From the NCBI RefSeq assembly GCF_003334255.1, contig NZ_QOWU01000030.1: a DNA stretch of 59,578 bases. One strand, given 5' to 3'. The first letter of the stretch is position 1, and the number at the start of each line of letters is the position of its first letter. Position numbers and translations under genes: made by a program. Positions 35,787-55,879 of this stretch are shown here, one piece after another. The DNA comes from Escherichia coli. Its GTDB lineage: Bacteria > Pseudomonadota > Gammaproteobacteria > Enterobacterales > Enterobacteriaceae. The notes under the pieces are model-generated. The model saw only the letters and a list, made by a program, of their open reading frames with translations. It had not been told where the DNA came from and did not search any database.

Positions 35787-35862
35787 GCCCGGATAGCTCA
35801 GTCGGTAGAGCAGGGGATTGAAAATCCCCGTGTCCTTGGTTCGATTCCGAGTCCGGGCACCA
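35787..35862 (+). tRNA. pheV: tRNA-Phe (GAA anticodon)
   Basis: 76-nt sequence gcccggatagctcagtcggtagagcaggggattgaaaatccccgtgtccttggttcgattccgagtccgggcacca with CCA end. Confidence 0.97.
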
Positions 35863-36061: not shown

Positions 36062-37057
36062 CTAAAATACATCAGTAAGTTCTGCCAGTTCTTTTTCAAG
36101 CACTCTTGCCGTCCCCTTCAAATCGATTTCCACATACTCCAGAGTGGTGGAAACATTCCTGTGCCCGAGCATGGTTTTCACCATATAAAGATTACGTTCC
36201 GGTGCACTCATCAGCGTACTGGCCAGCGTATGCCGAAAGCGATGAGGTGATACAGGGAAACCGCACTCTTTCGTCAGACGTCTGAAAAATCCTTTTACCG
36301 GTTGCAGTTCCGGAAGTCCGGTAACGAACGGTGCTTCTGACATCAATGCCACATAACGATGATAATGGAAAAGATAATCCTCAGGTCTTGCCCCCCGTTT
36401 CATCGCCTCATCAATCAAGTGCCTCATTCCCGGGACAAGATGACTGACCATAGGGATACGCCACTCATGGTGTGTCTTACTTCCCTCCGAACACAGATCA
36501 ATCCATCTTTCATCCGGATTAACATCCCGCAGACGCAGGTGAAGTAACTGATTTAGCCTCATCCCGGTAAAACGCAGCGTATTTACCACAATCATCCAGT
36601 ACCATGCCGGACGAATCGCACAACTACGCCAGTGCACACCACCAGAACGCTTCTCCTCTTCATGAAACTGTTCAAGAATCAGCAGAATTCGTTTTACCTG
36701 TTTCTTCGTCAGTGTTTTCTTACGTTTCTTTTCCTGTCTGACATTCATACCATCAAACGGATTCTCACTTAAATTAAGAAGTGTTGAGGAACATGCAAAA
36801 TTGAAAATGGCACGCATATGGCGAACCTTGTTATTCCATGTGTGCGTGGAGCGATTCTGTTTTTTCAGAACCTCTCGTTTCCATTCCCTCACATGCTGTT
36901 GCCGGATATCCTCCGGTAAAAGGGTCTCGCCAACAAACTTCCGGAATCCATTCAGAACCTTTAGGTAACTCCACTCCGTAGCCACTCTCACTGAACGGCA
37001 GAAAAAATATTCATCCATAAGCTCGTTCCAGCGCATGTCAGCATGACTTAATTTCAT
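36062..37057 (-). CDS. Tyrosine site-specific recombinase / island integrase, up to 331 aa
   Basis: Catalytic-domain motifs HRFRHTLAS and LGHRNVSTTLEYVEID (R…HxxR…Y); about 200 bp from tRNA-Phe 3' end; exact start among M1/M8/M14 unresolved. Confidence 0.85.
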   Translation of the reverse strand: MKLSHADMRWNELMDEYFFCRSVRVATEWSYLKVLNGFRKFVGETLLPEDIRQQHVREWKREVLKKQNRSTHTWNNKVRHMRAIFNFACSSTLLNLSENPFDGMNVRQEKKRKKTLTKKQVKRILLILEQFHEEEKRSGGVHWRSCAIRPAWYWMIVVNTLRFTGMRLNQLLHLRLRDVNPDERWIDLCSEGSKTHHEWRIPMVSHLVPGMRHLIDEAMKRGARPEDYLFHYHRYVALMSEAPFVTGLPELQPVKGFFRRLTKECGFPVSPHRFRHTLASTLMSAPERNLYMVKTMLGHRNVSTTLEYVEIDLKGTARVLEKELAELTDVF

Positions 37058-37099: not shown

Positions 37100-38698
37100 T
37101 TACCTCCTGCGCTCACTGAAAAAAAAGTTCGGACTGTCATTGAGAGCCCCTGTATCCATCAGACCACGTCCTTTTATCAGATAACCTTTGAGTATTTTAT
37201 AATCGTGTGTTTTCCCTGGTGCCTCAGCAATTCGCGCATGATAAAAACGCTGATTATCTTTTCGCTTATGGATATTCAGTCGTTCAAATGCAGCCTGTAG
37301 CACCTCTCTCTTCTCCCCGGGGAGTTGCCGGGCTTTCAGGTAATCATAAAAAACCCCCGGCACAGGAATGAAGACAAAGCCGGCAACCACATGAATTTTA
37401 TCGCCTTTATTGTTAAACGACAGTGAACCATTCTTCAATCCGTCTTTCAGCCATTCAAGAAACCGCTCTCCTGTTAAATCAGGATTAACAGCATCAGATT
37501 CTGCTTCACAGTATTCCTGTTGCTCAGCGTCTTGATACGACTGACAGATTTCCCCATGGCCCGCTGCTGATATATCTCCTGTTGATGAAACAGGAGCAAC
37601 CACCTCGCCAGATGGCAAGTCATCCTCCCCCTTTTCCGGCGCCCTCGCCTCCTCCGCAAACATGCTTACCAGCATAGCTGTATCTTCATCTGTCGATATA
37701 CTCTCCGTTTCACATGCGGCATCGTCCTCTGAACCTTCACTGCTGTCTGGTGTCGTCGGTTTCTCAGCCTGTTGTTGCTGCATCTCTGATTGTTCCTGAA
37801 CAGACTCTGCAGCATTGCCGAACACGGTATTCCCTTCAGCCGCAGCCCCTTCCCCGGACACAGCCGATGCCACGGTGCTCTCCGTTTTACCGGATGCAAC
37901 CACCTCCCCCGTAACGACCTCTGCTGAAGCAATATGACTGGCTGTGGCAACAATTCCACCGTTTAACAACGGACTTTCAGCCTGACGGGCAGCCTCCTGC
38001 AGAACATCACGGATGAGTGCCATTTCCGGATGCTGATGCCAGAACGCACCGGCCAGATTCTGAAGCGCTCCCGGCACCGTCGCAAGCCAGGCTGCAGCCC
38101 CCTCAGGTAACAGACCACCGGCAATCACTGCCGCCAGTTGCTGAGCTTCCGTACCCTGTGGCGGGATCAGTCTGAACCGGAAACGATACGCCTCATCAGG
38201 AACGGATATACCCGGCTGCCATCCCCGGCAGCTGAACAATTCGCCTTCCAGATGCGCAAGCAGAGGCAGGTGATAAAACAGGGCTGACCAGAAAATCACT
38301 GCATGCCAGGCCGCCCCCTGTGCGGCCTGCTCTTCCGCAGAGGCGCCCGGCAGAAACATATGTGCACGGGCCAGACGGACCGCGTAACTGGTATGCAACA
38401 ACGTCAGGTCCCCGAATCCCCCTGCATGTGACCAGCGCCCCTCCCGGGCCGCCGGGACATTCTGCGTGGAGAGAAGCAGACTGTATATGGGCGCACAACA
38501 CATCGCCTCACACAATGACTTTGACATCATATTGTTATCCCGTATCTGCTTCAGACACTGCGTCCTGTTCTTCGGCATCAGCAGTGAATCTGTCGTCAGC
38601 GGAGCATAAAACCCTTCCGGCGTCCCCGGCAGTGACCGCCCGTCATCGGGTATCTCCACAGCAGAACCAGAGGTAAAAAACTTCCGTAACTTAAACAT
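37100..38698 (-). CDS. Uncharacterised acidic Ala/Glu/Ser-rich protein, 533 aa
   Basis: Start MFKLRKFFTSGS with GGAGGG SD, 4 nt after helicase stop; track ORF runs on into the helicase gene; no canonical Walker A. Confidence 0.6.
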   Translation of the reverse strand: MFKLRKFFTSGSAVEIPDDGRSLPGTPEGFYAPLTTDSLLMPKNRTQCLKQIRDNNMMSKSLCEAMCCAPIYSLLLSTQNVPAAREGRWSHAGGFGDLTLLHTSYAVRLARAHMFLPGASAEEQAAQGAAWHAVIFWSALFYHLPLLAHLEGELFSCRGWQPGISVPDEAYRFRFRLIPPQGTEAQQLAAVIAGGLLPEGAAAWLATVPGALQNLAGAFWHQHPEMALIRDVLQEAARQAESPLLNGGIVATASHIASAEVVTGEVVASGKTESTVASAVSGEGAAAEGNTVFGNAAESVQEQSEMQQQQAEKPTTPDSSEGSEDDAACETESISTDEDTAMLVSMFAEEARAPEKGEDDLPSGEVVAPVSSTGDISAAGHGEICQSYQDAEQQEYCEAESDAVNPDLTGERFLEWLKDGLKNGSLSFNNKGDKIHVVAGFVFIPVPGVFYDYLKARQLPGEKREVLQAAFERLNIHKRKDNQRFYHARIAEAPGKTHDYKILKGYLIKGRGLMDTGALNDSPNFFFSERRR

Positions 38699-40199
38699 CC
38701 TTTCCCTCCACCACCTTCTCTGTGCCACTCTCATGCGGGGACGGCGTCTTCTCCGTCGTCCTGCTCTTTTCCTCAGCCAGTTGCTGCATGAGCTCATTGA
38801 GTACCAGCGTCCTGCGTGCCCGGGTAACCGCCACATACAACAGGTTAGTTTCATCCCGGCGCGCCTGTTCTGACATCAGCGGATCAGCGATATCCTGAAA
38901 ATCATCCCCCAGTACAACCCGCACCCATTCCAGTCCCTTACTGCGGTGCGCCGTTGAAACCGTGATATCAGCCTCCCGCTCGTTCGTGACTGTGTGCTCC
39001 CTGAGTAGCTCCAGTTTTTTTGGTAACGGAAAACACAGCTCCAGCAGTCGTATGGACTGATTCATCTCCACATCCTTCGTCACCTTCGCAATATGACGGT
39101 ATTCATCAAAATTCCGGTAATCCCTGCGCAACCGGTCAGAGTGCATCCGGGCCGGCATATCCATCTGGAACCAGTAAAGATCTTCAAGCGCCTCCGTTCG
39201 GTATCCCTCAATGCCCCCGACCCAGTAAACCTTCCTGCCCGCCATTGCTGCCATCAGCGCCGTGCCAATCACTCCGGCGACGGTCCGGTTCAGTACCGCC
39301 CGGTGTCCCCCAAATTTTCCACGCTTCATGCGCTCACGCATTTCCTGCATGGTAAGCACCTCATCATCACCGCCGCAGCCGCTCACCTCTCGACTTTCCC
39401 CTGCGCGTTTCAGCAGCAGATTAGCCATCGCGGCCACTGCGGGGCCAAAACGAAAACTCTGTGTCAGCCAAAGACGGTCGGCACCGGACAGAGACGGATG
39501 AGACAGGGCATCATCCGCGCCACGAAAACGGTAGATCTGCTGATACCGGTCACCGACCAGCACAATCCTGCACCGCTGTCCCAGCACAAGTGCGGAAGTC
39601 ACCGGATTCGCATCCTGCGCTTCATCAAACAGAATGGTGTCCCATCTGCGCGAGAGATCAGGTCCGGAGAGCTGAAACAATTTGAGATAGGTGTCATGGG
39701 TGACCGGAAACGTTCCATCCGGATCGCTCATTGCCTGCCAGAGCGTCCTCACAGCACGAAGTGCCTCATCCGGAGCAACTCCTTTCATTTCGTCCTTGTC
39801 CGGCAGATGCTGCCTGCCGGGGGTTGCATCCGCTGAGCAGATAAACTGATTCAGCCCTGTCATGGCCACCCGGGCCAGTGCCCAGTATCGGGTATTCAGT
39901 TTTCTTGCCACATCGGTGACGAACAAGCCCGGAACAAGCCGCTTCTGGTAATGCCTTCCGAAGCGGGCAAACGCCAGCTGATGCGACGTTTTGCATTCAA
40001 CGTTAAAAGGAAACCTGCGCTCAGCTTCATCACGAATCGCACGATTATAGGCGAGATAGAGCATCCTGCTCTCCGGGCAGGCCATGGCATAGCTGACCAG
40101 TGTGCTGGTTTTCCCTGTACCGGCAAAAGCATTAACAACAAGCTTCCTCCCCTGCCAGTGAATAATTGCCGTCTGTTCTTCTGTCGGTTTATGGGGCAT
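38691..40199 (-). CDS. Compact UvrD/Rep-like superfamily-1 DNA helicase, 502 aa
   Basis: Walker A AFAGTGKTS, motif II ILFDEAQD, motif III VGDRYQQIY, motif V TAHRSKGLEW, motif VI YVAVTRARR; GGAGG SD. Confidence 0.8.
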   Translation of the reverse strand: MPHKPTEEQTAIIHWQGRKLVVNAFAGTGKTSTLVSYAMACPESRMLYLAYNRAIRDEAERRFPFNVECKTSHQLAFARFGRHYQKRLVPGLFVTDVARKLNTRYWALARVAMTGLNQFICSADATPGRQHLPDKDEMKGVAPDEALRAVRTLWQAMSDPDGTFPVTHDTYLKLFQLSGPDLSRRWDTILFDEAQDANPVTSALVLGQRCRIVLVGDRYQQIYRFRGADDALSHPSLSGADRLWLTQSFRFGPAVAAMANLLLKRAGESREVSGCGGDDEVLTMQEMRERMKRGKFGGHRAVLNRTVAGVIGTALMAAMAGRKVYWVGGIEGYRTEALEDLYWFQMDMPARMHSDRLRRDYRNFDEYRHIAKVTKDVEMNQSIRLLELCFPLPKKLELLREHTVTNEREADITVSTAHRSKGLEWVRVVLGDDFQDIADPLMSEQARRDETNLLYVAVTRARRTLVLNELMQQLAEEKSRTTEKTPSPHESGTEKVVEGKDV

Positions 40200-40663
40200 G
40201 GCTTTCCTCCGTAAAGACGAAATTTCCGGTCACTCTGCCTTCAGCCAGGCGACCGTGACCAGCATTAATTTACCCTGGTGACCATAAAATTTTACCTCCC
40301 GTAAATTTTTAGCGACCTGAAAAGAATTAATTATCGCCACCCGGGTATCAGCTGTTCATTATCCCCTCAGACACAGCCCACAACGGGTCTGCTGTATCAC
40401 CGTTCTTCGTAACGGTCATGCTCTTTAACAATCCGGGAGCGGCCACGCCCTGAAGCCGGGCTGAGGAGGAAAACAGATATGCTACGTAGAGAGTGACGTG
40501 CCGCGCCTGCAGCCACAGGTAACACTCCCCAACATCGGACACCGCAAATAATGGCTACACAACCCGAAAACGCACTGAGCGCCAGAACAGTGCGTTTCCG
40601 GTTGTGCCGGAGCCTGCACCCTGCAGAGTCCTGAACAACATCCAGTAAAACCAGGCACTTTCG

Positions 40664-40699
40664 GCGACATCATTTTCCCCATGGTGATGTCGCTTTTTT
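40664..40699 (+). terminator. Strong intrinsic terminator in non-coding region
   Basis: 9-bp stem gcgacatca/tgatgtcgc, 12-nt loop, then tttttt; no ORF of 60 aa or more upstream on this strand. Confidence 0.65.
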
Positions 40700-40736
40700 C
40701 AGCACAGAATAATAATGCACAGCAGGAGTACAGATA

Positions 40737-40967
40737 ATGGCATCAGCACTGGCCACCCCAGCCCCGTATAAATACTGTATTCAGGCCACCATCGAAAAAC
40801 CCGGCGGTACACCGGTTTCATGGATTCGCTTCCAGAATACGCCCATGACGAAACAGGAGTGTGAAAAACTCTTCTCCACTGAAAAAGAAGCCGGTAAATC
40901 TTTCACCGTTAAAGTCGGGGTTACTCAATTTTCATGTAAGGAAAATCCACCTGCACCTGGAGAGTGA
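40737..40967 (+). CDS. Hypothetical small protein, 76 aa
   Basis: AGGAG SD 8 nt upstream of ATG; no recognisable family. Confidence 0.4.
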   Translation: MASALATPAPYKYCIQATIEKPGGTPVSWIRFQNTPMTKQECEKLFSTEKEAGKSFTVKVGVTQFSCKENPPAPGE

Positions 40968-40975
40968 TTTTTATT

Positions 40976-41170
40976 ATGCCTCATCCCATCACATATACAA
41001 ATTTTCTTCCGGTGGTTCTGTTTTTCGTTATCGTTATTTTTATTATCACTTTTATAATAGCCATCACCACGACCATCCCCGCAGATATGACTGTAAGAGG
41101 CTTTTACAATAGATACAGAAAGGATTTTCTGTCTCTTTTTTCGGCATATTTCCTTTCATCAATATTCTGA
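40976..41170 (+). CDS. Hypothetical small hydrophobic protein, about 64 aa
   Basis: Very hydrophobic N-terminal half; ATG at 40976 downstream of GGAGAG. Confidence 0.3.
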   Translation: MPHPITYTNFLPVVLFFVIVIFIITFIIAITTTIPADMTVRGFYNRYRKDFLSLFSAYFLSSIF

Positions 41171-41466
41171 GCATTCTTGGTGACAGGCACCAGTATTTCA
41201 GACAGCACGCCGGTTTTCGGTAGTACACCGGACAATGCGATTACAAACTCGCTGATTTCACTGGCGTTCTGTAATTCGTTATTAACTCACGCATGGATTT
41301 GTGATCTCTGCGACATACACAGAAACAAAAACATCTTTATTTATATAACACTGGCTTTTCTTCATCTTATTTTAATCAATTCATGCACCCATTTTATCTA
41401 CGCCACTTTTTATTAATTCAGTTAACTCCGTCTTAACAGACAGAAATAGTGAAAAAGGTGATACTG

Positions 41467-42138
41467 ATGAATATATTAAGATACTTAAGTATTTCGCTCT
41501 TCGCGTTCTCATTTTCATATACCGCCACAGCCTCCACTCAGATATCATCATCGCACAACCACGCCGAAAAACGTGCAATCGGTACGCTGAAATTTATACG
41601 GGCCGACGGACAACGACCGTTTGGTCAGGCTATGAAACAATTATTACCCACCGGCTGGCGTACTGAGATTGCCCGTGACGTCCGGCTCCCCGCCAGAATA
41701 TCATGGTCCGGAAATGACCAGTGGAACCATGTTATCGAAAAAACGCTGCCCCGCTACAGCCTGAAAGCCACATTTGATACCTCAGGGAAACGCGTACTGA
41801 TCCAGCAGGCGGAAAAAACGGTAAAATCTGGCCTGTTTTCTGCCCCCGTAACCGGTGTCAAAAAAACAGAAACACGTCATATTGAGCAGGGAATGACCCT
41901 GCGTACAGGGCTGGAAAAATGGGCAGCCGCCGAACCTTGCGCTACCGGGAAATGGAAAGTGGCATGGAAAACGCCGGTAAATTACAGTATCGATGCCCGG
42001 TTAGTTTTTTCAGGTAATTTTATGGATGCACTGAACAGTACATTCGCACTTTATCAGCAGGCTGAAAAACCCTTATATGCCTCGGTGAATAAAAACCAGT
42101 GCGTGCTGATAATTACTGACATCCCGGGGGACAGCTAA
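41467..42138 (+). CDS. Pilus-assembly accessory protein (PilL/TcpQ-like, tentative)
   Basis: Signal peptide; first gene of a block co-linear with the R64 thin-pilus operon; ATG 41467 with AGGTG SD (track starts at GTG 41449). Confidence 0.45.
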   Translation: MNILRYLSISLFAFSFSYTATASTQISSSHNHAEKRAIGTLKFIRADGQRPFGQAMKQLLPTGWRTEIARDVRLPARISWSGNDQWNHVIEKTLPRYSLKATFDTSGKRVLIQQAEKTVKSGLFSAPVTGVKKTETRHIEQGMTLRTGLEKWAAAEPCATGKWKVAWKTPVNYSIDARLVFSGNFMDALNSTFALYQQAEKPLYASVNKNQCVLIITDIPGDS

Positions 42139-46153: not shown

Positions 46154-47674
46154 ATGCCAGAGACTATCGTACTGCCTCCTGAAGATATTCGTGATTTCGT
46201 CGCAATTCAGCATGACGCTGACGGAAAAATCAGGGTGAAAGTCGTCGAAGCGAAGAAGCACATCACCTCTGTACAACGTTACCTGACGCTCTTACGCTCC
46301 CGCTATCCGGAAAAAATCAGCAAATTCGATTTTACCACTCTTGACGTTATCGCAGCCCTGAACAGCAATAATACGGAACGTGCACCGGGCGTTTTATCCG
46401 ACGGAGGGATCAACACAGTACAAAGAAAAGTTCTTGATTACATCAGAAAAGCCGCTCAACTGAATGCCTCAGATCTGCATATCACACCAGGACGCGACAA
46501 CACGGACTTCACCTATGTGGAAGCCCGGGTTCACGGCGAACTGGAAGTGCTCGATATCCTCCGGAAAGAAGAAGGCCTCGAATTACTGGGGGCCACCTAT
46601 TCCGGCATGACCGACGTCATCAAGGGCACACAGTTTGATCCCGGGGTGCCTCAGGATGCGCGTCTTTCAGAACAGTACCTGAAACTGGCAGGTCTGTTTG
46701 GTGCACGCTACTCCCACTACCCCTGTGTGGGCGGTCTCTATGCCGTGCTCCGGCTGATCAAGGATGACAGCCAGCAAATCCCGACCTTCAGTATGCTGGG
46801 CTACCACCCTGAGCAGGAGCGCACCCTGCGACGTATTCTGCAACGTCCTGAAGGCATTATCACACTCTCAGGCCCCACCGGCTCAGGAAAATCCACCACG
46901 CTGAGAACCGCCTCTGCGGCATACCTTGAACAGTACGGCTTCAACAACACCGGCGGTATTCTTCTTCCCCGTCGCAGGCTGTTCACCATTGAATCCCCAC
47001 CGGAAGGGCGTATTCCCGGTGCCATTCAGACCGCCGTCATGGATACCGCGCAGGGCTGGGTGGACTCCATCAAATCAGCGTTGCGTCTTGATCCTGACGG
47101 GATCCTGAACGGTGAAATCCGCGACCACGATTCCGCTATTACGGCGATAAAAGCCGCCATGACCGGGCATCTGATGCTGACCACCATCCATGCGAACGAC
47201 CCGATTAATATCCTCGAACGCCTTGAGATGGAAGGCGTTCAGACTAGGATGATCGCCGACCCACAGTTGTTCATCGGCCTGCTGAGCCAGCGTCTGGTTC
47301 AGCTGATATGTCCGCACTGCCGTCGCCCCTGGCATGAGGTGGCCACCGGACGCACGGATGATGAACGGCACCTAGTGGAAGGCTTCTGTAACCCGGACCA
47401 GGTGTATCTGAGAAATCATGAAGGCTGCCCACACTGCTGGCGTGGCGTGACGGGGCGAACGGTTATCGCAGAAGTCATCTCCCCGGATGCCCGTTTTTTC
47501 CAGTTGTACCGGGAAAAGGGCCGTATTGAGGCTAAAACCTACTGGCACAGAGAACTGGGCGGAATGACCCGAAATCAGCATCTCCAGGGAAAAATCAACA
47601 GCGGACAGGTTGATCCGCTAGCGGCCCATTACATCTCTCCCATCGACGAGGACAGCTATACGCTGTTGCACTGA
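46154..47674 (+). CDS. pilQ: Type IV pilus assembly ATPase (GspE/PilB family), 506 aa
   Basis: Walker A LSGPTGSGKSTTL, Asp box, His box (TIHANDP), tetracysteine motif (CPHC…CPHC). Confidence 0.85.
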   Translation: MPETIVLPPEDIRDFVAIQHDADGKIRVKVVEAKKHITSVQRYLTLLRSRYPEKISKFDFTTLDVIAALNSNNTERAPGVLSDGGINTVQRKVLDYIRKAAQLNASDLHITPGRDNTDFTYVEARVHGELEVLDILRKEEGLELLGATYSGMTDVIKGTQFDPGVPQDARLSEQYLKLAGLFGARYSHYPCVGGLYAVLRLIKDDSQQIPTFSMLGYHPEQERTLRRILQRPEGIITLSGPTGSGKSTTLRTASAAYLEQYGFNNTGGILLPRRRLFTIESPPEGRIPGAIQTAVMDTAQGWVDSIKSALRLDPDGILNGEIRDHDSAITAIKAAMTGHLMLTTIHANDPINILERLEMEGVQTRMIADPQLFIGLLSQRLVQLICPHCRRPWHEVATGRTDDERHLVEGFCNPDQVYLRNHEGCPHCWRGVTGRTVIAEVISPDARFFQLYREKGRIEAKTYWHRELGGMTRNQHLQGKINSGQVDPLAAHYISPIDEDSYTLLH

Positions 47675-47675
47675 C

Positions 47676-48776
47676 ATGAGATTTCTGGAAAAACTCAACA
47701 ACACCGACATTGAGCTGACAGCACTGACCGTCTGGATAGCCAGAAAAATCTTTGCCCTGAACCGGGTGGAGTTCTACGAATCCCTGGGCGGCATGATACG
47801 TGACGGGACCCCGTCACTGCGTGCACTCGAATTTCTCTGCAATGTCGAAACTGACTTCGGAACCCGGAAAGGGACATCAGGCATGTATTTTCTGGCGAAG
47901 GAATGCATCGCGTCCATTAAATCCAGCGGCATGTTATCCGGTGCTCTGCCCACCTGGGTGCCGCCGGAAGAAGCCACGCTCATTCGGAACGGGGAAGAGC
48001 GCGGGAATATTGCCGACGCGCTTTTCCAGGTGGCCAGAACCGTTAAGGCACGGCGGGAAATGACATCCAGCCTCATTGCCGTCTGCCTCTACCCCCTTCT
48101 GCTGCTTTCGCTCTGTGTGGTGAATATGTACAACGCCCATACCCGTATTGTCCCCATCGTCAGTGCGTTTGCTGCAGAAGATAAATGGTCATTCCAGATG
48201 AAAGTGCTGGCTGGCATGTCGGAGTTTTTCATCGGGTACGGATTCTGGCTCTGCGGGGCCAGTTTCACCCTGACTGTTCTGATCCGTTTTTCATTCAGCC
48301 GGTATACCGGCCCCGGCAGGAGGATGCTGGACAGGATTCCCCCCTGGTCACTGTATCAGACCTTACACGGGGTGAATTATCTGTTCAGTATTTCATCCAT
48401 GTTGCAGATCAATATTCCTCTTTCGCAGGCGCTGCTCCGAATGGAAAAAGGGGCAGAAAATAATAAATGGTTAAAGGAGAGAATTCAGGCAATAAGAAAA
48501 CATGTATTATCCGGTCAGAATCTGGCCACGGCAATGCGAAATTCCGGTTACGATTTCCCGTCCAGAATATGTATCAATAAACTGCTCCTGAATTCCGAAA
48601 GGGAGGACAGTGTGGCAGCCATGGCGCTCTATGCCGATCAGTGGCTGGAGGAAGCAAAAAAACGGGTAAAACGAATTGGATTAATTATTACCGGTATATC
48701 AGGAGGTTTTGTCTTCTTTTTTATTCTTAACATGATATCTGCCATCTACAGTATCAGCGACATGCTGAAGCAATAA
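47676..48776 (+). CDS. pilR: Type IV pilus inner-membrane platform protein (GspF/PilC family), 366 aa
   Basis: Polytopic membrane protein directly after the ATPase, 1-nt gap. Confidence 0.75.
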   Translation: MRFLEKLNNTDIELTALTVWIARKIFALNRVEFYESLGGMIRDGTPSLRALEFLCNVETDFGTRKGTSGMYFLAKECIASIKSSGMLSGALPTWVPPEEATLIRNGEERGNIADALFQVARTVKARREMTSSLIAVCLYPLLLLSLCVVNMYNAHTRIVPIVSAFAAEDKWSFQMKVLAGMSEFFIGYGFWLCGASFTLTVLIRFSFSRYTGPGRRMLDRIPPWSLYQTLHGVNYLFSISSMLQINIPLSQALLRMEKGAENNKWLKERIQAIRKHVLSGQNLATAMRNSGYDFPSRICINKLLLNSEREDSVAAMALYADQWLEEAKKRVKRIGLIITGISGGFVFFFILNMISAIYSISDMLKQ

Positions 48777-52884: not shown

Positions 52885-54054
52885 ATGTTTCGAAAAATCA
52901 AAATTCGCAAAATGACTCTCAACCGGGCGCTGGACAAATACCTGAAAACCGTTTCCGTCCATAAAAAAGGTCATCTGCAGGAGTTTTATCGCGTCAATGT
53001 GATTAAACGTCACCCTATGGCCGATCGCTATATGGATGAAATCACGACCGTTGATATCGCCGGTTACCGGGATCAGCGTTTGGCTCAAATTAACCCACGA
53101 ACAGGGCGTCAAATCACCGGAAATACCGTCCGTCTTGAACTTGCCCTTTTATCATCATTATTCAATATCGCCCGTGTGGAATGGGGAACATGCCGTATGA
53201 ATCCTGTTGAACTGGTCCGAAAACCGAAAATCAGTAATGGCCGCGACCGCCGACTGACTTCTGGTGAAGAACGCCGCCTTTCCCGCTATTTCAGGGACAA
53301 AAATCCGCAGCTCTACGTTATCTTCCATCTGGCTCTGGAAACAGCAATGCGCCAGGGAGAAATTCTCTCATTACGCTGGGAACACCTCGATTTGCAGCAC
53401 GGCGTGGCGCATCTTCCTGAAACGAAAAATGGCTCACCACGCGACGTACCACTCTCCCGGAAAGCACGTAACTACCTGCAAATTCTGCCACAACAGATAA
53501 ACGGCAATGTGTTCAGTTACACCTCGTCCGGTTTCAAAAGCGCCTGGCGTACCGCTCTTCTGGATCTGAAAATAGAAAATCTGCATTTTCACGATCTCCG
53601 CCATGAGGCCATCAGCCGTCTGTTCGAGCTCGGCACACTGAACGTTATGGAGATTGCAGCCATTTCCGGTCACCGCTCCCTGAACATGTTGAAACGGTAC
53701 ACACATCTCCGGGCATATCACCTGGTCAGTAAACTCGATGCAAGGCGTAAACAGACCAGCAAAATTTCCCCTTATTTTGTTCCCTACCCAGCAACTGTCA
53801 GAAACAGAAACGGAGTGTTCATTGTGACACTGCACGATTTCGACCTTGAAAGCCGTGCTGACACCCGGGAACTGGCAATATCTCACGCCAGCGTATTGTT
53901 GCTGCGCGCACTGGCCCAGGCTGCTCAGCGGGGTGAACGCGTCCCCACACCAGGCGAGCTACCCGCAAACATTGATGAACGGGTCATGATTTGTCCGTTA
54001 ACAAACAGCCAGTTCATGACAAAAGCGAACAGTATTTTCATATCCTCCTCCTGA
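52885..54054 (+). CDS. rci: Shufflon-specific tyrosine recombinase (Rci-like), 389 aa
   Basis: Motifs [10 protein letters not shown] and [13 protein letters not shown]; GGAAGG SD; immediately downstream of sfx4. Confidence 0.8.
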
Positions 54055-54083
54055 ACAAATAATTTTTGTTCAAAATTAACGCT

Positions 54084-54386
54084 ATGAGACCCTTTATGAA
54101 ACACTTATCCTCCCGTGCAGCCACTGCGGATAATAATCGTATCGTTACAATTGAAGACGTTTACACAATCGCATTCTCGCAACCAATTCACACCGAATCA
54201 GCGTTGGGGCAAAGGTGGATGTTGATCCATACTGGTGAATATGAAAGTGCCAGCGATGCAAAACGCTTCCTTGATACGCTCGTCACCGGGCACTGTGCTT
54301 GCATGGTAACACCATCACCTGTTCTGGATCATGACACCTGGCTGCGTATCCGCCTGCTGATGGGCGAGATAAGGGATGCCAAATAA
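54084..54386 (+). CDS. Hypothetical protein, about 100 aa
   Basis: ORF only; start uncertain (TTG 54066 or ATG 54084). Confidence 0.35.
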   Translation: MRPFMKHLSSRAATADNNRIVTIEDVYTIAFSQPIHTESALGQRWMLIHTGEYESASDAKRFLDTLVTGHCACMVTPSPVLDHDTWLRIRLLMGEIRDAK

Positions 54387-54477
54387 ACATTCATGGCCCC
54401 AACGCATAAAAATAACGACGGGGACTCTGGCAGTGGTACCATTCTTTTTACATAGAGCCAATATATAAACAACTTTT

Positions 54478-54798
54478 CTATGATAATATCTTTATCATGT
54501 TATAAATAATTGTCCCCTCAGCAGAAAGGGCCCAAATAGAAAAAGCAAAAATCCTTATAAAAATATTCTTTACAAGCGTTCCTATATACAAACAAACTAT
54601 ATAAACCAGCCAGAACAGAATGACTGCAAAAGAAACACACACGGCCCCCATAAAAATAAATGTCATCGAATCCCATGGTTTCACCAGTACAACCGGAACC
54701 ATGGCTGCCAGAACAATAAGAGCAGCATTACCCAACAGCGTCTCTCGAATAATATCCCTTATAATCTCCAGTTTTTCTTTATGCTGTTTAATTTTCAT
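54478..54798 (-). CDS. Hypothetical small membrane protein, 106 aa
   Basis: Two predicted TM helices; in an AT-rich stretch. Confidence 0.4.
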   Translation of the reverse strand: MKIKQHKEKLEIIRDIIRETLLGNAALIVLAAMVPVVLVKPWDSMTFIFMGAVCVSFAVILFWLVYIVCLYIGTLVKNIFIRIFAFSIWALSAEGTIIYNMIKILS

Positions 54799-55057
54799 AT
54801 GAACCTCATTGATTTCATCCCGAAAAGGAAAAGATTATATAACGAAATACTTTCAATCTCCTGACTCCGTCTGCTCTGCAGCATAATGCCAGACCAGCGG
54901 CATGCTAAATCACGTCCTGTCCGAATCCTTTTCATTCACGCTTAAAACAGAGTTAAAAGCACTCTTGAAACACACTCGATCATAACGATCGAAATAACTC
55001 GTTTCCGTTCAGTAAACACGCTCTTTAGACTTAACATATGAACCGCACGGAGGTGAA

Positions 55058-55879
55058 ATGAAACCCAACAGCACAGGCATTGCTGCCCGCATGATGCTCT
55101 CCATTGACAGGGTCCGGATTTGCGAAGCTCTGCTCAATAACCGCCAGTTGCAGTCCACTCCTCTGCAGATCCGTTATCCGCAGGGTGTCAGAGAAGCACT
55201 CGGAATAATGAGCGAGCAACTCTCCCTTTCTGTATCCGACCTGACGCGTATCCTGGTCGAAGATGCATTAACTGAAATGTTTCTCCCGGCTGAAAACATC
55301 GTTCACCGTCTTATCTGCCGGACAGAACACATCATGCAGGCACATGATGTCTGCGTAACAACGATGACAACGTTACTGGCTCCCTGGAATATCCGTCCTG
55401 CCGTTTTCCGTGACCCGGACAAACTCGCAGATTATCTGACAGGAGAGATTCTGACTGCTCTGGCTGACTGGTTTTATCTCAACCCGGAATGGCTGAACGG
55501 CAGGGTACGTTATCCTTTAAGCCGTGCCGGTGAGTGGCCAGCAACACAGGATGCGTTCTGCCAGCTTATTTCAGCCAGCGATAATGTGGATATTATTATC
55601 TGGCACAGTTTTCCTTTTGCCGGTGTTCATTCACAGGAATATTGCGGTGTACTGTTCCGCAAGAAAAAAGAAATTAATAAAGCCATCATTTATCCTGTAC
55701 TTTCTTTATCACCTGTAAGAATGAATAAGGAAAAAGAAAACTGGTTTCACACTGCCCGCAATTTATATGCAAAGACATCCGTCCGGACCGTAACGCTTCG
55801 TCCGGCACAGGCAGAATATCTGATGATAGGAAAAATATTACCTGCTGAGTTATTCAGTATACCGTTATTACCCTGGTAA
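55058..55879 (+). CDS. Hypothetical protein, 273 aa
   Basis: GGAGG SD 7 nt upstream; no recognisable catalytic motif. Confidence 0.5.
   Translation: MKPNSTGIAARMMLSIDRVRICEALLNNRQLQSTPLQIRYPQGVREALGIMSEQLSLSVSDLTRILVEDALTEMFLPAENIVHRLICRTEHIMQAHDVCVTTMTTLLAPWNIRPAVFRDPDKLADYLTGEILTALADWFYLNPEWLNGRVRYPLSRAGEWPATQDAFCQLISASDNVDIIIWHSFPFAGVHSQEYCGVLFRKKKEINKAIIYPVLSLSPVRMNKEKENWFHTARNLYAKTSVRTVTLRPAQAEYLMIGKILPAELFSIPLLPW

Follow-up and report, generated by a model that had tools for sequence, protein, structure and literature searches.

The 0.5-kb interval between positions 40200 and 40736 of the window (the whole stretch of 59,578 nucleotides of Escherichia coli DNA that was analysed) is a conserved non-coding control region. 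It is best explained as the control region that separates two divergently oriented modules of an ICEEc2-like integrative conjugative element (ICE), namely, the DNA-processing module and the type IVb conjugative-pilus module. Comparison of the sequences suggests, tentatively and with a probability somewhat short of even, that most of this region makes a leader or attenuator RNA of the pilus operon.

Genomic context and distribution

The window is E. coli chromosome with a large ICE inserted at tRNA-Phe (pheU), of the kind that carries a GI-type T4SS, a PFGI-1-class relaxase, and a type IVb pilus. According to the RefSeq annotation, the interval is flanked on one side by int and the genes for a TraI-domain protein and a UvrD-like helicase, and on the other by the genes for a DUF1187 protein, pilL, pilM, pilN, and those that follow, with the GI-type ICE transfer genes located further along the same ICE. 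The int-traI-uvrD-like operon is encoded on the minus strand and the DUF1187-pilLMN operon on the plus strand, which leaves the interval of ~0.5 kb between them. The TraI protein matches TIGR03760 above the cut-off, and Pfam TraI_2 as well.

Only two ICE lineages, A (which includes the window) and B, carry the interval. They were found in 55 of the 5426 E. coli genomes searched (~1% of complete E. coli genomes), and the interval is absent from all the others and from the plasmid collection. Between the two lineages, the proteins are 42–82% identical, with TraI at only 53%. A contig scan with the helicase alignment retrieved 10 close loci plus L019, which holds a C-terminal helicase fragment only, and further helicase homologues all have cargo genes upstream, with neither pil genes nor interval-like sequence. 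The search for DUF1187 homologues returned near-identical proteins only, while PilN homologues (64–69% identity) were found on plasmid-type contigs, beside a VirB-type T4SS or other plasmid genes, where DUF1187 and the conserved block described below are missing. Scanning metagenomes with a 20-mer from that block recovered the two known lineages plus chance G+C-rich matches, and the scan of viral contigs gave one chance match. A repeat or mobile element was ruled out, as the block occurs only once in the window and in the ICE as a whole.

In clinical E. coli, ICEEc2-like ICEs located at pheU or pheV are active and can promote the Hfr-like transfer of large chromosome segments (PMC13127887). 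Neither the oriT nor the control of the conjugative pilus has been mapped for these elements in the literature covered, and the interval lies exactly at the junction of the DNA-processing and pilus modules. As a leader or attenuator, it would act as the switch controlling the timing of pilus production; as an oriT, it would be required in cis for transfer and for mobilising the chromosome. In both cases, it offers a short and defined target for mutagenesis, although its general significance is modest unless the mechanism proves unusual, because of the narrow distribution.

Architecture of the interval

The features discussed below are as follows:

40200–40261, minus strand: core promoter and 5' UTR of the helicase/traI/int operon, with a layout shared with relatives
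40206–40210 (plus-strand positions), minus strand: Shine-Dalgarno (SD) sequence GGAGG of the helicase operon
40237 to 40232, minus strand: -10-like CAGAGT of the helicase operon
40261 to 40256, minus strand: -35-like TGGTCA, with an 18-nt spacer to the -10-like hexamer
40324–40339, minus strand: motif TGGCGAnnATTAATTC, shared across the family and possibly an operator, ~130 nt before the helicase ATG
40334–40369, plus strand: candidate promoter P(+), with conserved hexamers and a scrambled spacer
40334–40339, plus strand: -35 TCGCCA of P(+), conserved between A and B
40357–40362, plus strand: -10 CATTAT of P(+) (CATCAT in lineage B)
40399–40416, plus strand: hairpin HP0, with a 5–6 bp stem and a variable loop
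40420–40527, plus strand: ultra-conserved block of 108 bp
40439–40447 and 40497–40504, plus strand: inverted arms GCGGCCACG and CGTGCCGC within the block
40463–40469, plus strand: perfect SD GAGGAGG within the block
40479–40496, plus strand: mini-ORF ATG CTA CGT AGA GAG TGA, encoding MLRRE (MLRYE in lineage B)
40505–40520, plus strand: small hairpin within the block
40521–40557, plus strand: C-rich, G-poor spacer after the mini-ORF, of rut-like composition
40558–40606, either strand: HP1, a long imperfect inverted repeat or hairpin (16–18 bp on the plus strand, ~20 bp on the minus strand with G.U pairs)
40650–40662, plus strand: conserved motif ACCAG..C.UUUC, 5' of the terminator
40663–40694 (stem) and 40694–40699 (U-tract), plus strand: intrinsic terminator T(+), from fold and conservation
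40700–40739, plus strand: gap between terminator and DUF1187 start, with SD AGGAG at 40724–40728 and ATG at 40737

Coding potential and the helicase-proximal region

The mini-ORF aside, the interval holds no conserved ORF on either strand. An earlier note on this DNA had reported no plus-strand ORF of 60 aa or more, and this is borne out, since the longest plus-strand ORFs in 40200–40736 span 27–30 aa. The minus strand has ORFs of 64 and 66 aa, whose frames are lost in lineage B. A small protein was rejected as an explanation, given that these two ORFs and the plus-strand ORF of 27 aa are frame-shifted or absent in lineage B. A conserved short peptide spanning the region, which the same note had named as a possible refutation, was not found either: the frames differ between the lineages, and the mini-ORF of five codons is the sole reading frame kept.

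The helicase-proximal ~150 bp are best explained as the promoter and operator region of the helicase operon itself. The promoter stretch (40200–40261) is ~70% identical between lineages A and B, and its layout (GTTwwT..TGGT, 18 nt, CAG[A/T]GTG, SD) is found upstream of the helicase in 16 related elements, which hold cargo genes, not pil, beside the helicase. The motif TGGCGAnnATTAATTC is kept in the window and in loci L002, L082, and L089; L084 and L090 have a palindromic variant of it. The TCGCCA half of the motif also serves as the -35 of P(+), the candidate promoter on the plus strand. Assigning this part to the helicase operon departs from the picture drawn in the earlier note.

The ultra-conserved block and the C-rich spacer

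The interval is better conserved than anything else in the neighbourhood, flanking proteins included. Within it, the block is 87% identical between A and B, compared to 53% at the 4-fold sites of the adjacent helicase gene (p = 1e-14), and includes 100%-identical runs of 26 and 37 nt. In both lineages, the GAGGAGG sequence is followed, at a spacing of 7–9 nt, by an ATG, four more codons, and a TGA. This mini-ORF is a predicted leader ORF, and the variable codon lies within it. Two 2-nt indels separate the lineages inside the block, which, together with the shifted ORF frames, exclude a coding function for the block as a whole. The block with its SD and mini-ORF, the most conserved feature of the interval, had been missed before.

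The fold of the block is not thermodynamically special (z = +0.45), and the constraint could therefore be on the DNA instead of the RNA. The block has a G+C content of 55–58% and no direct repeats, and contains palindromic pieces (AGCCGGGCT, plus GCGGCCACG...CGTGCCGC). Further on, 40-nt windows over 40495–40575 hold 33–42% C and 12–23% G in both lineages; the identity is only 30% at 40528–40557, yet the bias of C over G persists in both. This composition may point to a Rho function of the spacer.

The terminator and the local hairpins

Local folds were tested by comparing their energy with that of 200 shuffled sequences, expressed as a z-score. Judged by its sequence, T(+) is a genuine plus-strand intrinsic terminator, as had been claimed for the end of the interval, and it is kept in lineage B. 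It consists of a stem of 12 pairs with an 8-nt loop, followed by a run of six T, in line with the features of intrinsic terminators (a G+C-containing stem of at least 5 bp and a loop of 3–10 nt, with a U-tract directly after it), and its energy of -17.6 kcal/mol (z = -5.6) was reached by none of the 200 shuffles. The stem (GGCGACAUC/GAUGUCGCC) is invariant between the lineages except for a compensatory U.G to G-C and a compatible A-U to G.U change, while the loop has diverged and the flanks are only 42–47% identical. The U-tract reads UUUUUU in lineage A and U[A/G]UUUUU in lineage B, that is, a tail of U6 and U5, respectively, and the G.U pairs of the stem exist on the plus strand only.

No RNA family in Rfam accounts for these structures. 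The covariance-model search proposed in the earlier note left the interval without a family: a permissive Rfam 15 scan of 39000–42000 gave no match with E <= 10 inside 40200–40736, and a scan of the whole window at the gathering thresholds returned only tRNA-Phe and naRNA4, both outside the interval. A weak match to Thr_leader at 41040–41142 (E = 8.9) was dismissed as chance.

The core of HP1 is a perfect 10-bp repeat (AAACGCACTG at 40568–40577 and CAGTGCGTTT at 40588–40597). A perfect 9-bp inverted repeat at about 40560–40590 had been described previously; the repeat exists, although it has 10 bp, the coordinates given were approximate, and the helix extends over 40558–40606. It had also been interpreted as an internal hairpin of a plus-strand RNA. 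On that strand it does fold (-26.9 kcal/mol, z = -4.8, 0 of 200 shuffles as good), but it folds better on the minus strand (z = -5.6), with all four variants gaining 4–9 kcal/mol in stability there. A comparison of HP1 in the window and lineage B reveals compensation at two pairs (C-G to U-A and G-C to A-U), and no difference is disruptive. Most lineage-A copies hold a derived G-to-A change at 40592, which results in a C.A mismatch on the plus strand and a G.U pair on the minus strand. HP0, which had not been noticed earlier, is also better than all 200 shuffles (z = -4.1), and shows one compensatory change between the lineages (U-A to G-C) with a fully diverged loop.

The conservation of structure across homologous islands, another check suggested in the earlier note, gave a positive result, as HP0, HP1, and the terminator hairpin all keep their pairing in the divergent lineage B. 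Pairing amounts to 99.5% over 46 pairs, and the window and lineage B differ by four compensatory double changes, with none disrupted; since there are only two independent lineages, each covariation represents a single evolutionary event. The global fold of 40420–40705 is only marginally better than that of shuffles (z = -2.3 and -1.7), and claims are therefore restricted to the local hairpins.

These data bear directly on the idea that the interval has no specific function, the hairpins being chance or relic structures and the block a recent recombination patch between ICE lineages. A single comparison of two lineages is available, and such a patch could produce high local identity. However, each of the three hairpins beats 200 of 200 shuffles, and the four independent compensatory changes all lie outside the block, in regions otherwise 30–54% identical. 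Moreover, the block is not a fresh copy, because it has internal lineage-specific differences and indels. A lack of function is regarded as highly improbable.

On the other hand, the features of HP1 and the block could be those of an oriT, with the block and/or HP1 acting as relaxosome DNA sites, namely, the nic region and the inverted repeat bound by the relaxase, for the adjacent MobH/PFGI-1-class TraI. HP1 would then form on the single transferred (minus) strand, and the plus-strand terminator would merely insulate the pilus operon. Going upstream from the relaxase operon, the interval is the first intergenic region encountered, placed between divergent transfer operons, and HP1 is an inverted repeat of 16–20 bp near the relaxase gene, whose inner arms co-vary between lineages with TraI proteins only 53% identical. 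Its better pairing on one strand, with G.T/G.U-type pairs, is what a single-strand hairpin would show, and the constraint on the block acts on its sequence and not on its fold. An oriT is often located near relaxosome genes and contains inverted repeats (PMC5587640), and E. coli ICEs of this kind do transfer and drive Hfr-like chromosome transfer (PMC13127887). No mapped oriT for them was found in the literature covered; that of the related ICEKp2 could not be identified (PMC6761156), and the nic sites of MOBH systems are uncharacterised (PMC12857230, PMC5587640).

The distribution of these features, however, speaks against an oriT. Contrary to what is expected of a MOBH oriT, the block and the relaxase module do not occur together in related ICEs: in 14 related elements with helicases 56–80% identical (most of them 62–72%), no similarity to the block or HP1 was detected upstream of the helicase-traI-int module, although these elements may be decayed islands or have their oriT elsewhere. 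Both features are also missing from all other E. coli genomes and plasmids searched. The known MOBH oriTs (SXT/R391, IncA/C, and oriT1 and oriT2 of ICEclc) resemble the interval in being non-coding, in having inverted repeats, and in lying in a promoter region near DNA-processing genes, but they are AT-rich with several direct repeats (PMC5587640), unlike the G+C-richer block without such repeats. In addition, the sequence that follows HP1 on its 3' side on the minus strand, where a nic site would be expected, shows the lowest conservation of all parts (30% identity), and the conserved U-tract, the SD with its mini-ORF, and the C>G bias would be left without explanation. An oriT is considered unlikely.

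The minus-strand reading of HP1 (A-tract, stem, and UUUUCGGGUUGUG) fits a further proposal, in which the block consists of sites for ICE or host transcription factors, the RNA is functionless, T(+) stops plus-strand read-in, and HP1 is a minus-strand terminator, so that both modules are kept transcriptionally separate. The greater stability of HP1 on the minus strand agrees with this, as do the sequence conservation of the block without a stable fold and its palindromic pieces. There is also a precedent in the related element PAPI-1 of P. aeruginosa, where pilL2 is controlled by TprA, NdpA2, and MvaT, with distal activator sites and H-NS-type silencing; the long promoter region there includes an activator site between -254 and -287 (PMC8565334). 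PAPI-1 is an ICE of the same broad type, with a GI-type T4SS and a type IVb pil operon, and this site, ~250–290 bp upstream of the start codon, has a position similar to that of the block. However, it shares no sequence similarity with the block, it is a protein-binding site, and neither a leader terminator nor a mini-ORF has been described there. Furthermore, insulation requires inward transcription, and no conserved minus-strand promoter was found to the right of HP1; the perfect SD with its conserved mini-ORF would be unexplained; and a near-invariant stretch of 108 bp is long for operator sites. Purely DNA-based regulation with insulators is judged distinctly improbable.

A predicted leader of the pilus operon

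The remaining ~330 bp are most consistently read as a pilus-operon leader. They would be transcribed on the plus strand from P(+), a putative weak sigma-70-type promoter, with a start predicted near A40369. The hexamers of P(+) are conserved around a spacer that is 17 nt long in both lineages, with only 4 of 17 positions identical, and the sequence CCC[C/T]TCAGACAC after the -10 is also conserved. Its PWM score is modest (5.7), and similar scores arise by chance within the interval, so that the evidence for the promoter is the evolutionary pattern. Inspection by eye revealed no convincing conserved match to sigma-54, -32, -28, -E, CRP, or IHF sites in the interval. The promoter prediction suggested in the earlier note thus yielded TCGCCA-17-CATTAT with conserved hexamers, but only a modest score.

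The most likely product, on the evidence of these signals, is a plus-strand RNA of ~330 nt (331 nt, from ~40369 to 40699). From the terminator, an RNA of 150–400 nt on the plus strand had been deduced before; the conserved stem and U-tract, the plus-only G.U pairs, and the 331-nt candidate give comparative support to this deduction, while the RNA itself is a prediction. From 5' to 3', this leader would hold HP0, the invariant block with its SD and 5-codon mini-ORF, the C-rich spacer, HP1, and the terminator, which would act as an attenuator 37 nt before the DUF1187 start codon. Most transcripts would stop at 40699, possibly leaving an RNA species of ~330 nt, and the pilus operon would be expressed by read-through only. 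The level of read-through may be set in the leader by translation of the mini-ORF, by Rho loading on the C-rich spacer, or by an unknown factor bound to the block.

The observations behind this reading are the conservation, the covariation, the anatomy of the terminator, the non-coding nature of the sequence, and the finding that no promoter is conserved between the terminator and DUF1187. A long control region ahead of the first pil gene also has a parallel in PAPI-1, with its activator site far upstream of pilL2 (PMC8565334). In both lineages, the terminator lies 37–38 nt from the DUF1187 ATG, and within this gap (40700–40739, 42% identical) promoter hits are lineage-specific or polymorphic, as for a -10 candidate in lineage B (TATTTT vs TGTTTT). 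The distance from DUF1187 to pilL in lineage B is just 52 nt. Control of the pilus operon in cis is the preferred reading. The RNA had been proposed to regulate one of the neighbouring operons, of which the pilus operon is retained here, whereas nothing was found in support of an action on the divergent helicase operon.

The same transcript (~40369–40699) could, however, be a stand-alone trans-acting sRNA, possibly Hfq-binding, with the block as its functional or seed part and a separate pil promoter, located either downstream of the terminator or ahead of pilL. The U6 tail, the conserved single-stranded and U-rich ACCAG..C.UUUC motif just 5' of the terminator, and a block whose primary sequence is conserved although it has no stable fold, as would be the case for a seed, agree with this. 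Lineage A also has lineage-specific promoter-like sites overlapping or after the terminator, and an AT-rich spacer of 480 bp before pilL. A related ICE provides a precedent, since PesA of PAPI-1 is a non-coding RNA of ~260 nt next to the pil2 operon that ends at an intrinsic terminator (PMC5493400). Nevertheless, PesA lies at the opposite end of its operon, downstream of the last pil gene (pilM2), where it arises by processing of a longer RNA and overlaps a convergent gene at that gene's 3' end, and it is unrelated to the interval in position and sequence. Besides, no target is known, no promoter is conserved in the 37–38 nt before the DUF1187 ATG, lineage B has DUF1187 and pilL directly next to each other, and a perfect SD with a mini-ORF is more typical of a leader. 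A trans-acting sRNA is given a low probability.

A pilus-operon leader would have counterparts among the trp, pyrBI, and tna (TnaC plus rut) attenuators, in which a promoter-distal, non-coding leader likewise holds a short ORF behind a strong SD, followed by C-rich sequence and, close to the first structural gene, a terminator. Unlike these, the mini-ORF has only five codons and ends ~165 nt before the terminator, the genes encode a conjugative pilus instead of metabolic functions, and there is neither an Rfam leader match nor a conserved antiterminator/terminator alternative: the partners predicted by RNAduplex for the terminator arms differ between lineages A and B, and no conserved alternative pairing was found.

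Several observations run against this reading: the ordinary score of P(+), the missing antiterminator pairing, and the block's lack of a stable fold. HP1 is also more stable on the minus strand, with the C.A mismatch of most lineage-A copies on the plus strand, and the promoter-like sites or the 480-bp spacer of this lineage could supply an independent pil promoter.

The opposite strand preference of HP1 and T(+) hints at overlapping sense and antisense transcription. In a dual-strand RNA switch for conjugation in a Gram-negative ICE, analogous to prgQ/Anti-Q of pCF10, a plus-strand pil leader ending at T(+) and a convergent minus-strand RNA ending at HP1 would overlap by ~145 nt (40555–40699), and their pairing would set the read-through into the pilus operon; in a variant, the block would double as the oriT of ICEEc2-type elements, which would couple pilus expression to DNA processing. 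This dual-strand reading is considered quite unlikely.

Among conjugative elements, in the Enterococcus plasmid pCF10, with its prgQ/Anti-Q system, the IRS1 terminator in a long leader decides the expression of the conjugation operon. That system belongs to another phylum and is unrelated in sequence, no conserved antisense promoter was found in the interval, and there is no peptide-pheromone system, but both share a conjugation operon placed behind a long leader with an intrinsic terminator.

Gene order and distribution

The interval at window positions 40200-40736, between the helicase operon (minus strand) and the DUF1187-pil operon (plus strand), is composite: a helicase-operon promoter region adjoins a conserved, lineage-restricted non-coding module, which most likely provides a predicted plus-strand leader of ~330 nt with a genuine terminator before the pilus operon. 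Gene calls were taken from the RefSeq annotation of E. coli 2015C-3121, whose chromosome matches the window at 100% identity, and the tRNA from RefSeq and Rfam.

Genes around the interval (window positions; protein genes from RefSeq)
35787-35859: tRNA-Phe, pheU locus, after dcuA-cutA-dsbD; the large island begins beyond
36062-37057, minus: tyrosine integrase
37100-38698, minus: TraI-domain protein
38691-40199, minus: UvrD-like helicase
40200-40736: interval, between helicase gene and DUF1187
40737-40967, plus: DUF1187 gene
after DUF1187: type IVb pilus operon (TcpQ-like pilL, pilM, pilN, pilO2, pilP, ATPase, ...)

The pilus operon ends with pilV and a shufflon recombinase (RefSeq), beyond which lie ArdC, TraG and TIGR03756/03757 'integrating conjugative element' proteins. 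TraI scores above the curated cut-off of TIGR03760 (ICE relaxase, PFGI-1 class), more weakly against MobH, and also hits Pfam TraI_2 and TraI_2_C. Given this gene content and these matches, the island is an ICE of the pKLC102/PAPI-1/ICEclc/ICEEc2 kind, and the interval is the divergent region separating its DNA-processing operon from its pilus operon.

The helicase stop and the annotated traI start overlap by 8 nt (38691-38698), which suggests translational coupling; by open frame alone, traI extends 52 codons further upstream, to 38854, within the helicase gene. The window's ICE copy looks partly decayed (47670-48769, 53704-54401, 54457-55569). In the identical RefSeq record, a T2SS-F family pilus platform gene is frameshifted, IS1A adjoins a truncated traF, and iha, further along, has an internal stop, so this strain may lack working pilus and transfer machinery.

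The interval was found in 55 of 5426 complete E. coli genomes, chromosomal every time, and had no match among 72,556 plasmids. Its copies form two ICE lineages: A, to which the window belongs (18 copies, at least 97.5% identity to the interval), and B (37 copies, ~74%), as in AR_0085, where the element lies at pheV with gene order unchanged. Scanning metagenomes with a 20-mer of the conserved block (40420-40527) returned these lineages and chance matches, nothing else. The helicase-TraI-integrase module is widespread across Enterobacterales. Upstream of the helicase, 14 close full-length relatives carry cargo genes (adhesins, invasin, pga operon, methylases) and no pil operon, and they share no similarity with the interval except its helicase-proximal part. 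The closest pil operons elsewhere (PilN 64-69% identical) are on plasmid-type contigs, without DUF1187 and without the interval. Since the interval is missing from these relatives, the comparative evidence consists of two lineages only. Between them, protein identity is 81% for Int, 53% for TraI, 82% for the helicase, 64% for DUF1187, 42% for PilL, 44% for PilM and 69% for PilN; four-fold degenerate sites of the helicase gene are 53% identical.

Segments of the interval and identity between lineages A and B
40200-40350: 69%, predicted helicase operon promoter and possible operator
40351-40419: 54%, candidate plus-strand promoter, then hairpin HP0
40420-40527: 87%, conserved block
40528-40557: 30%, C-rich spacer
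40558-40608: 71%, long inverted repeat HP1
40609-40662: 47%, linker with an 11-nt indel
40663-40699: 64%, plus-strand terminator
40700-40736: 42%, gap up to the DUF1187 start

Predicted promoters at the helicase side

The stretch 40200-40350 is assigned to the helicase-traI-int operon: it holds the predicted promoter, possibly with an operator. Alignment with pil-less relatives (loci L002-L009, L020 and L082-L091) reveals a common upstream layout, consisting of a T-rich stretch, a TGGT-type -35, 18 nt, CAG[A/T]GTG and a Shine-Dalgarno (SD) sequence, as well as the motif TGGCGAnnATTAATTC ~130 nt upstream of the helicase gene. Layout and motif (window 40200-40345) occur in ICE-like islands of E. 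coli, Salmonella, Serratia, Erwinia, Pectobacterium, Cedecea and Edwardsiella, independently of which gene lies upstream.

Across the border with 40351-40419, TCGCCA (40334-40339) and CATTAT/CATCAT (40357-40362) are kept in both lineages, separated by 17 nt in each, although only 4/17 spacer positions are identical; 14/16 nt beyond the -10 are identical. This pattern is the evolutionary signature of a putative plus-strand promoter, with a candidate start near A40369, although its PWM score (5.7) is unremarkable.

The conserved block

The block contains runs of 26 and 37 nt identical between lineages, and its 87% identity compares with a neutral level of 53% (p = 1e-14). Between its inverted arms, GCGGCCACG and CGTGCCGC, sit two elements:

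40463-40469, plus: perfect SD, GAGGAGG
40479-40496, plus: mini-ORF, ATG CTA CGT AGA GAG TGA

Lineage B keeps both (MLRYE, with an SD spacing of 7 rather than 9 nt). Two 2-nt indels, together with frame shifts in every longer ORF, exclude a protein gene, and an ORF scan bore out the earlier note's statement that the interval holds no plus-strand ORF of 60 aa or more. The fold of the block is not thermodynamically special on either strand (z = +0.45 against shuffles); the constraint acts on primary sequence. Further on, 40-nt windows across 40495-40575 hold 33-42% C and 12-23% G in both lineages, a composition that persists although identity at 40528-40557 is 30%, and that resembles a Rho-loading site.

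Terminator and predicted leader

The intrinsic terminator described in the earlier note is real, with a 12-pair stem (40663-40694), a T-run (40694-40699) and a fold of -17.6 kcal/mol (z = -5.6; equalled by 0/200 shuffles). Its stem GGCGACAUC/GAUGUCGCC is invariant between lineages, whereas the loop has changed in sequence and length; changes at paired positions comprise a compensatory U.G to G-C and a compatible A-U to G.U. Both lineages retain the U-tract, and an ACCAG..C.UUUC motif is conserved directly 5' (within 40609-40662). Compared with other lineage-A variants, the window's copy has a 1-nt deletion at the terminator base (GCC to GC, 40694), which leaves G.U as closing pair.

The upper-stem G.U pairs form on the plus strand only, where the terminator is 0.5-3.5 kcal/mol more stable and where alone the U-tract lies. 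When the C>G bias, SD/mini-ORF and promoter signature are added, the evidence favours a predicted plus-strand RNA of ~331 nt (40369-40699), which partly supports the reasonable argument of the earlier note that a terminator implies such a transcript. The Rfam search proposed there matched the interval to no curated RNA family.

The same transcript could act in trans as a stand-alone sRNA, a role that its U6 tail and seed-like block would suit, but the downstream promoter that the pilus operon would then need is missing: in each lineage 37-38 nt separate the end of the terminator from the DUF1187 start codon, and 40700-40736 holds no promoter conserved between them. Because of this gap, and because lineage B pilL lies 52 nt past DUF1187, the simplest reading would be a leader/attenuator, in which DUF1187-pil transcription would start upstream and pass the terminator by read-through. 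In lineage A, DUF1187 and pilL are separated by an AT-rich spacer of ~480 bp (40968-41466, 30-46% G+C), compared with only those 52 nt in lineage B. Within the lineage-A spacer, an unannotated, very hydrophobic 68-aa ORF (40964-41170) has no NCBIfam match; a weak Rfam hit to Thr_leader (41040-41142, E = 8.9) is probably a chance match.

No conserved antiterminator pairing was found, so a classical trp-type switch is unsupported. A ribosome ending at the mini-ORF stop (40494-40496) would sit over the neighbouring CGTGCCGC arm and a small hairpin; given this position and the C-rich stretch after it, mini-ORF translation, Rho and the intrinsic terminator might conceivably act together as in tna. 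Equally possible, by analogy, would be a protein bound to the block: in PAPI-1, TprA controls pilL2 through a site lying 254-287 bp upstream, and MvaT silences it (PMC8565334).

Hairpins, strand preference and a possible transfer origin

The inverted repeat of the earlier note is present but longer than the 9 bp given: a perfect 10-mer (40568-40577 with 40588-40597) lies inside the longer imperfect helix 40558-40606, HP1 (-26.9 kcal/mol, z = -4.8). Every difference here between the window and lineage B falls in the loop, in a bulge, or is compensated (C-G to U-A, G-C to A-U). A third small hairpin, absent from that note, is HP0 (40399-40416; z = -4.1), whose loop has diverged completely and whose stem shows one compensatory pair. 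Five helices comprise 46 pairs, 99.5% paired versus 25-47% with partners slid; double changes occur at four of the 46, each a single evolutionary event given two lineages.

The asymmetry of HP1 is opposite to that of the terminator: whichever of the four sequence variants is folded, the minus-strand RNA is 4-9 kcal/mol more stable. At 40592 the four other lineage-A variants sequenced (probably 16/18 genomes) carry a derived A in place of G, which pairs as G.U on the minus strand but is mismatched (C.A) on the plus; the window keeps the ancestral G, so its HP1 is perfectly paired. Read on the minus strand, HP1 is terminator-like (A-tract, stem, UUUUCGGGUUGUG), but no minus-strand promoter conserved between lineages was found to its right. 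Lineage A alone has a high-scoring sigma-70-like leftward promoter candidate overlapping the DUF1187 start (40709-40737, minus; TTATCT-17-TATTAT, score 8.5), whose RNA would be antisense to the terminator and end at HP1. The strand preference of HP1 would be compatible with a convergent antisense RNA or with a hairpin on single-stranded DNA.

The latter bears on a serious alternative, that the interval is the ICE's oriT. Going upstream from the relaxase operon, it is the first intergenic region encountered, and oriTs commonly adjoin relaxosome genes and carry inverted repeats (PMC5587640); none has been mapped in related ICEs (PMC6761156), and E. coli ICEs are transfer-proficient (PMC13127887). 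However, block and HP1 accompany the helicase-traI-int module in 0/14 relatives, the block has 55-58% G+C, the sequence beside HP1 is the least conserved, and an oriT leaves both the U-tract and the SD/mini-ORF unaccounted for. The leader/attenuator and oriT readings are not mutually exclusive. The interval would gain interest if the block were a transfer origin, or if the opposite hairpin strand preferences reflected a sense/antisense switch.

Unrelated to the interval, an Rfam match to naRNA4 (CssrE, nucleoid-associated ncRNA) lies in chromosomal DNA of the window at 23885-23955, minus strand, just over the gathering score.
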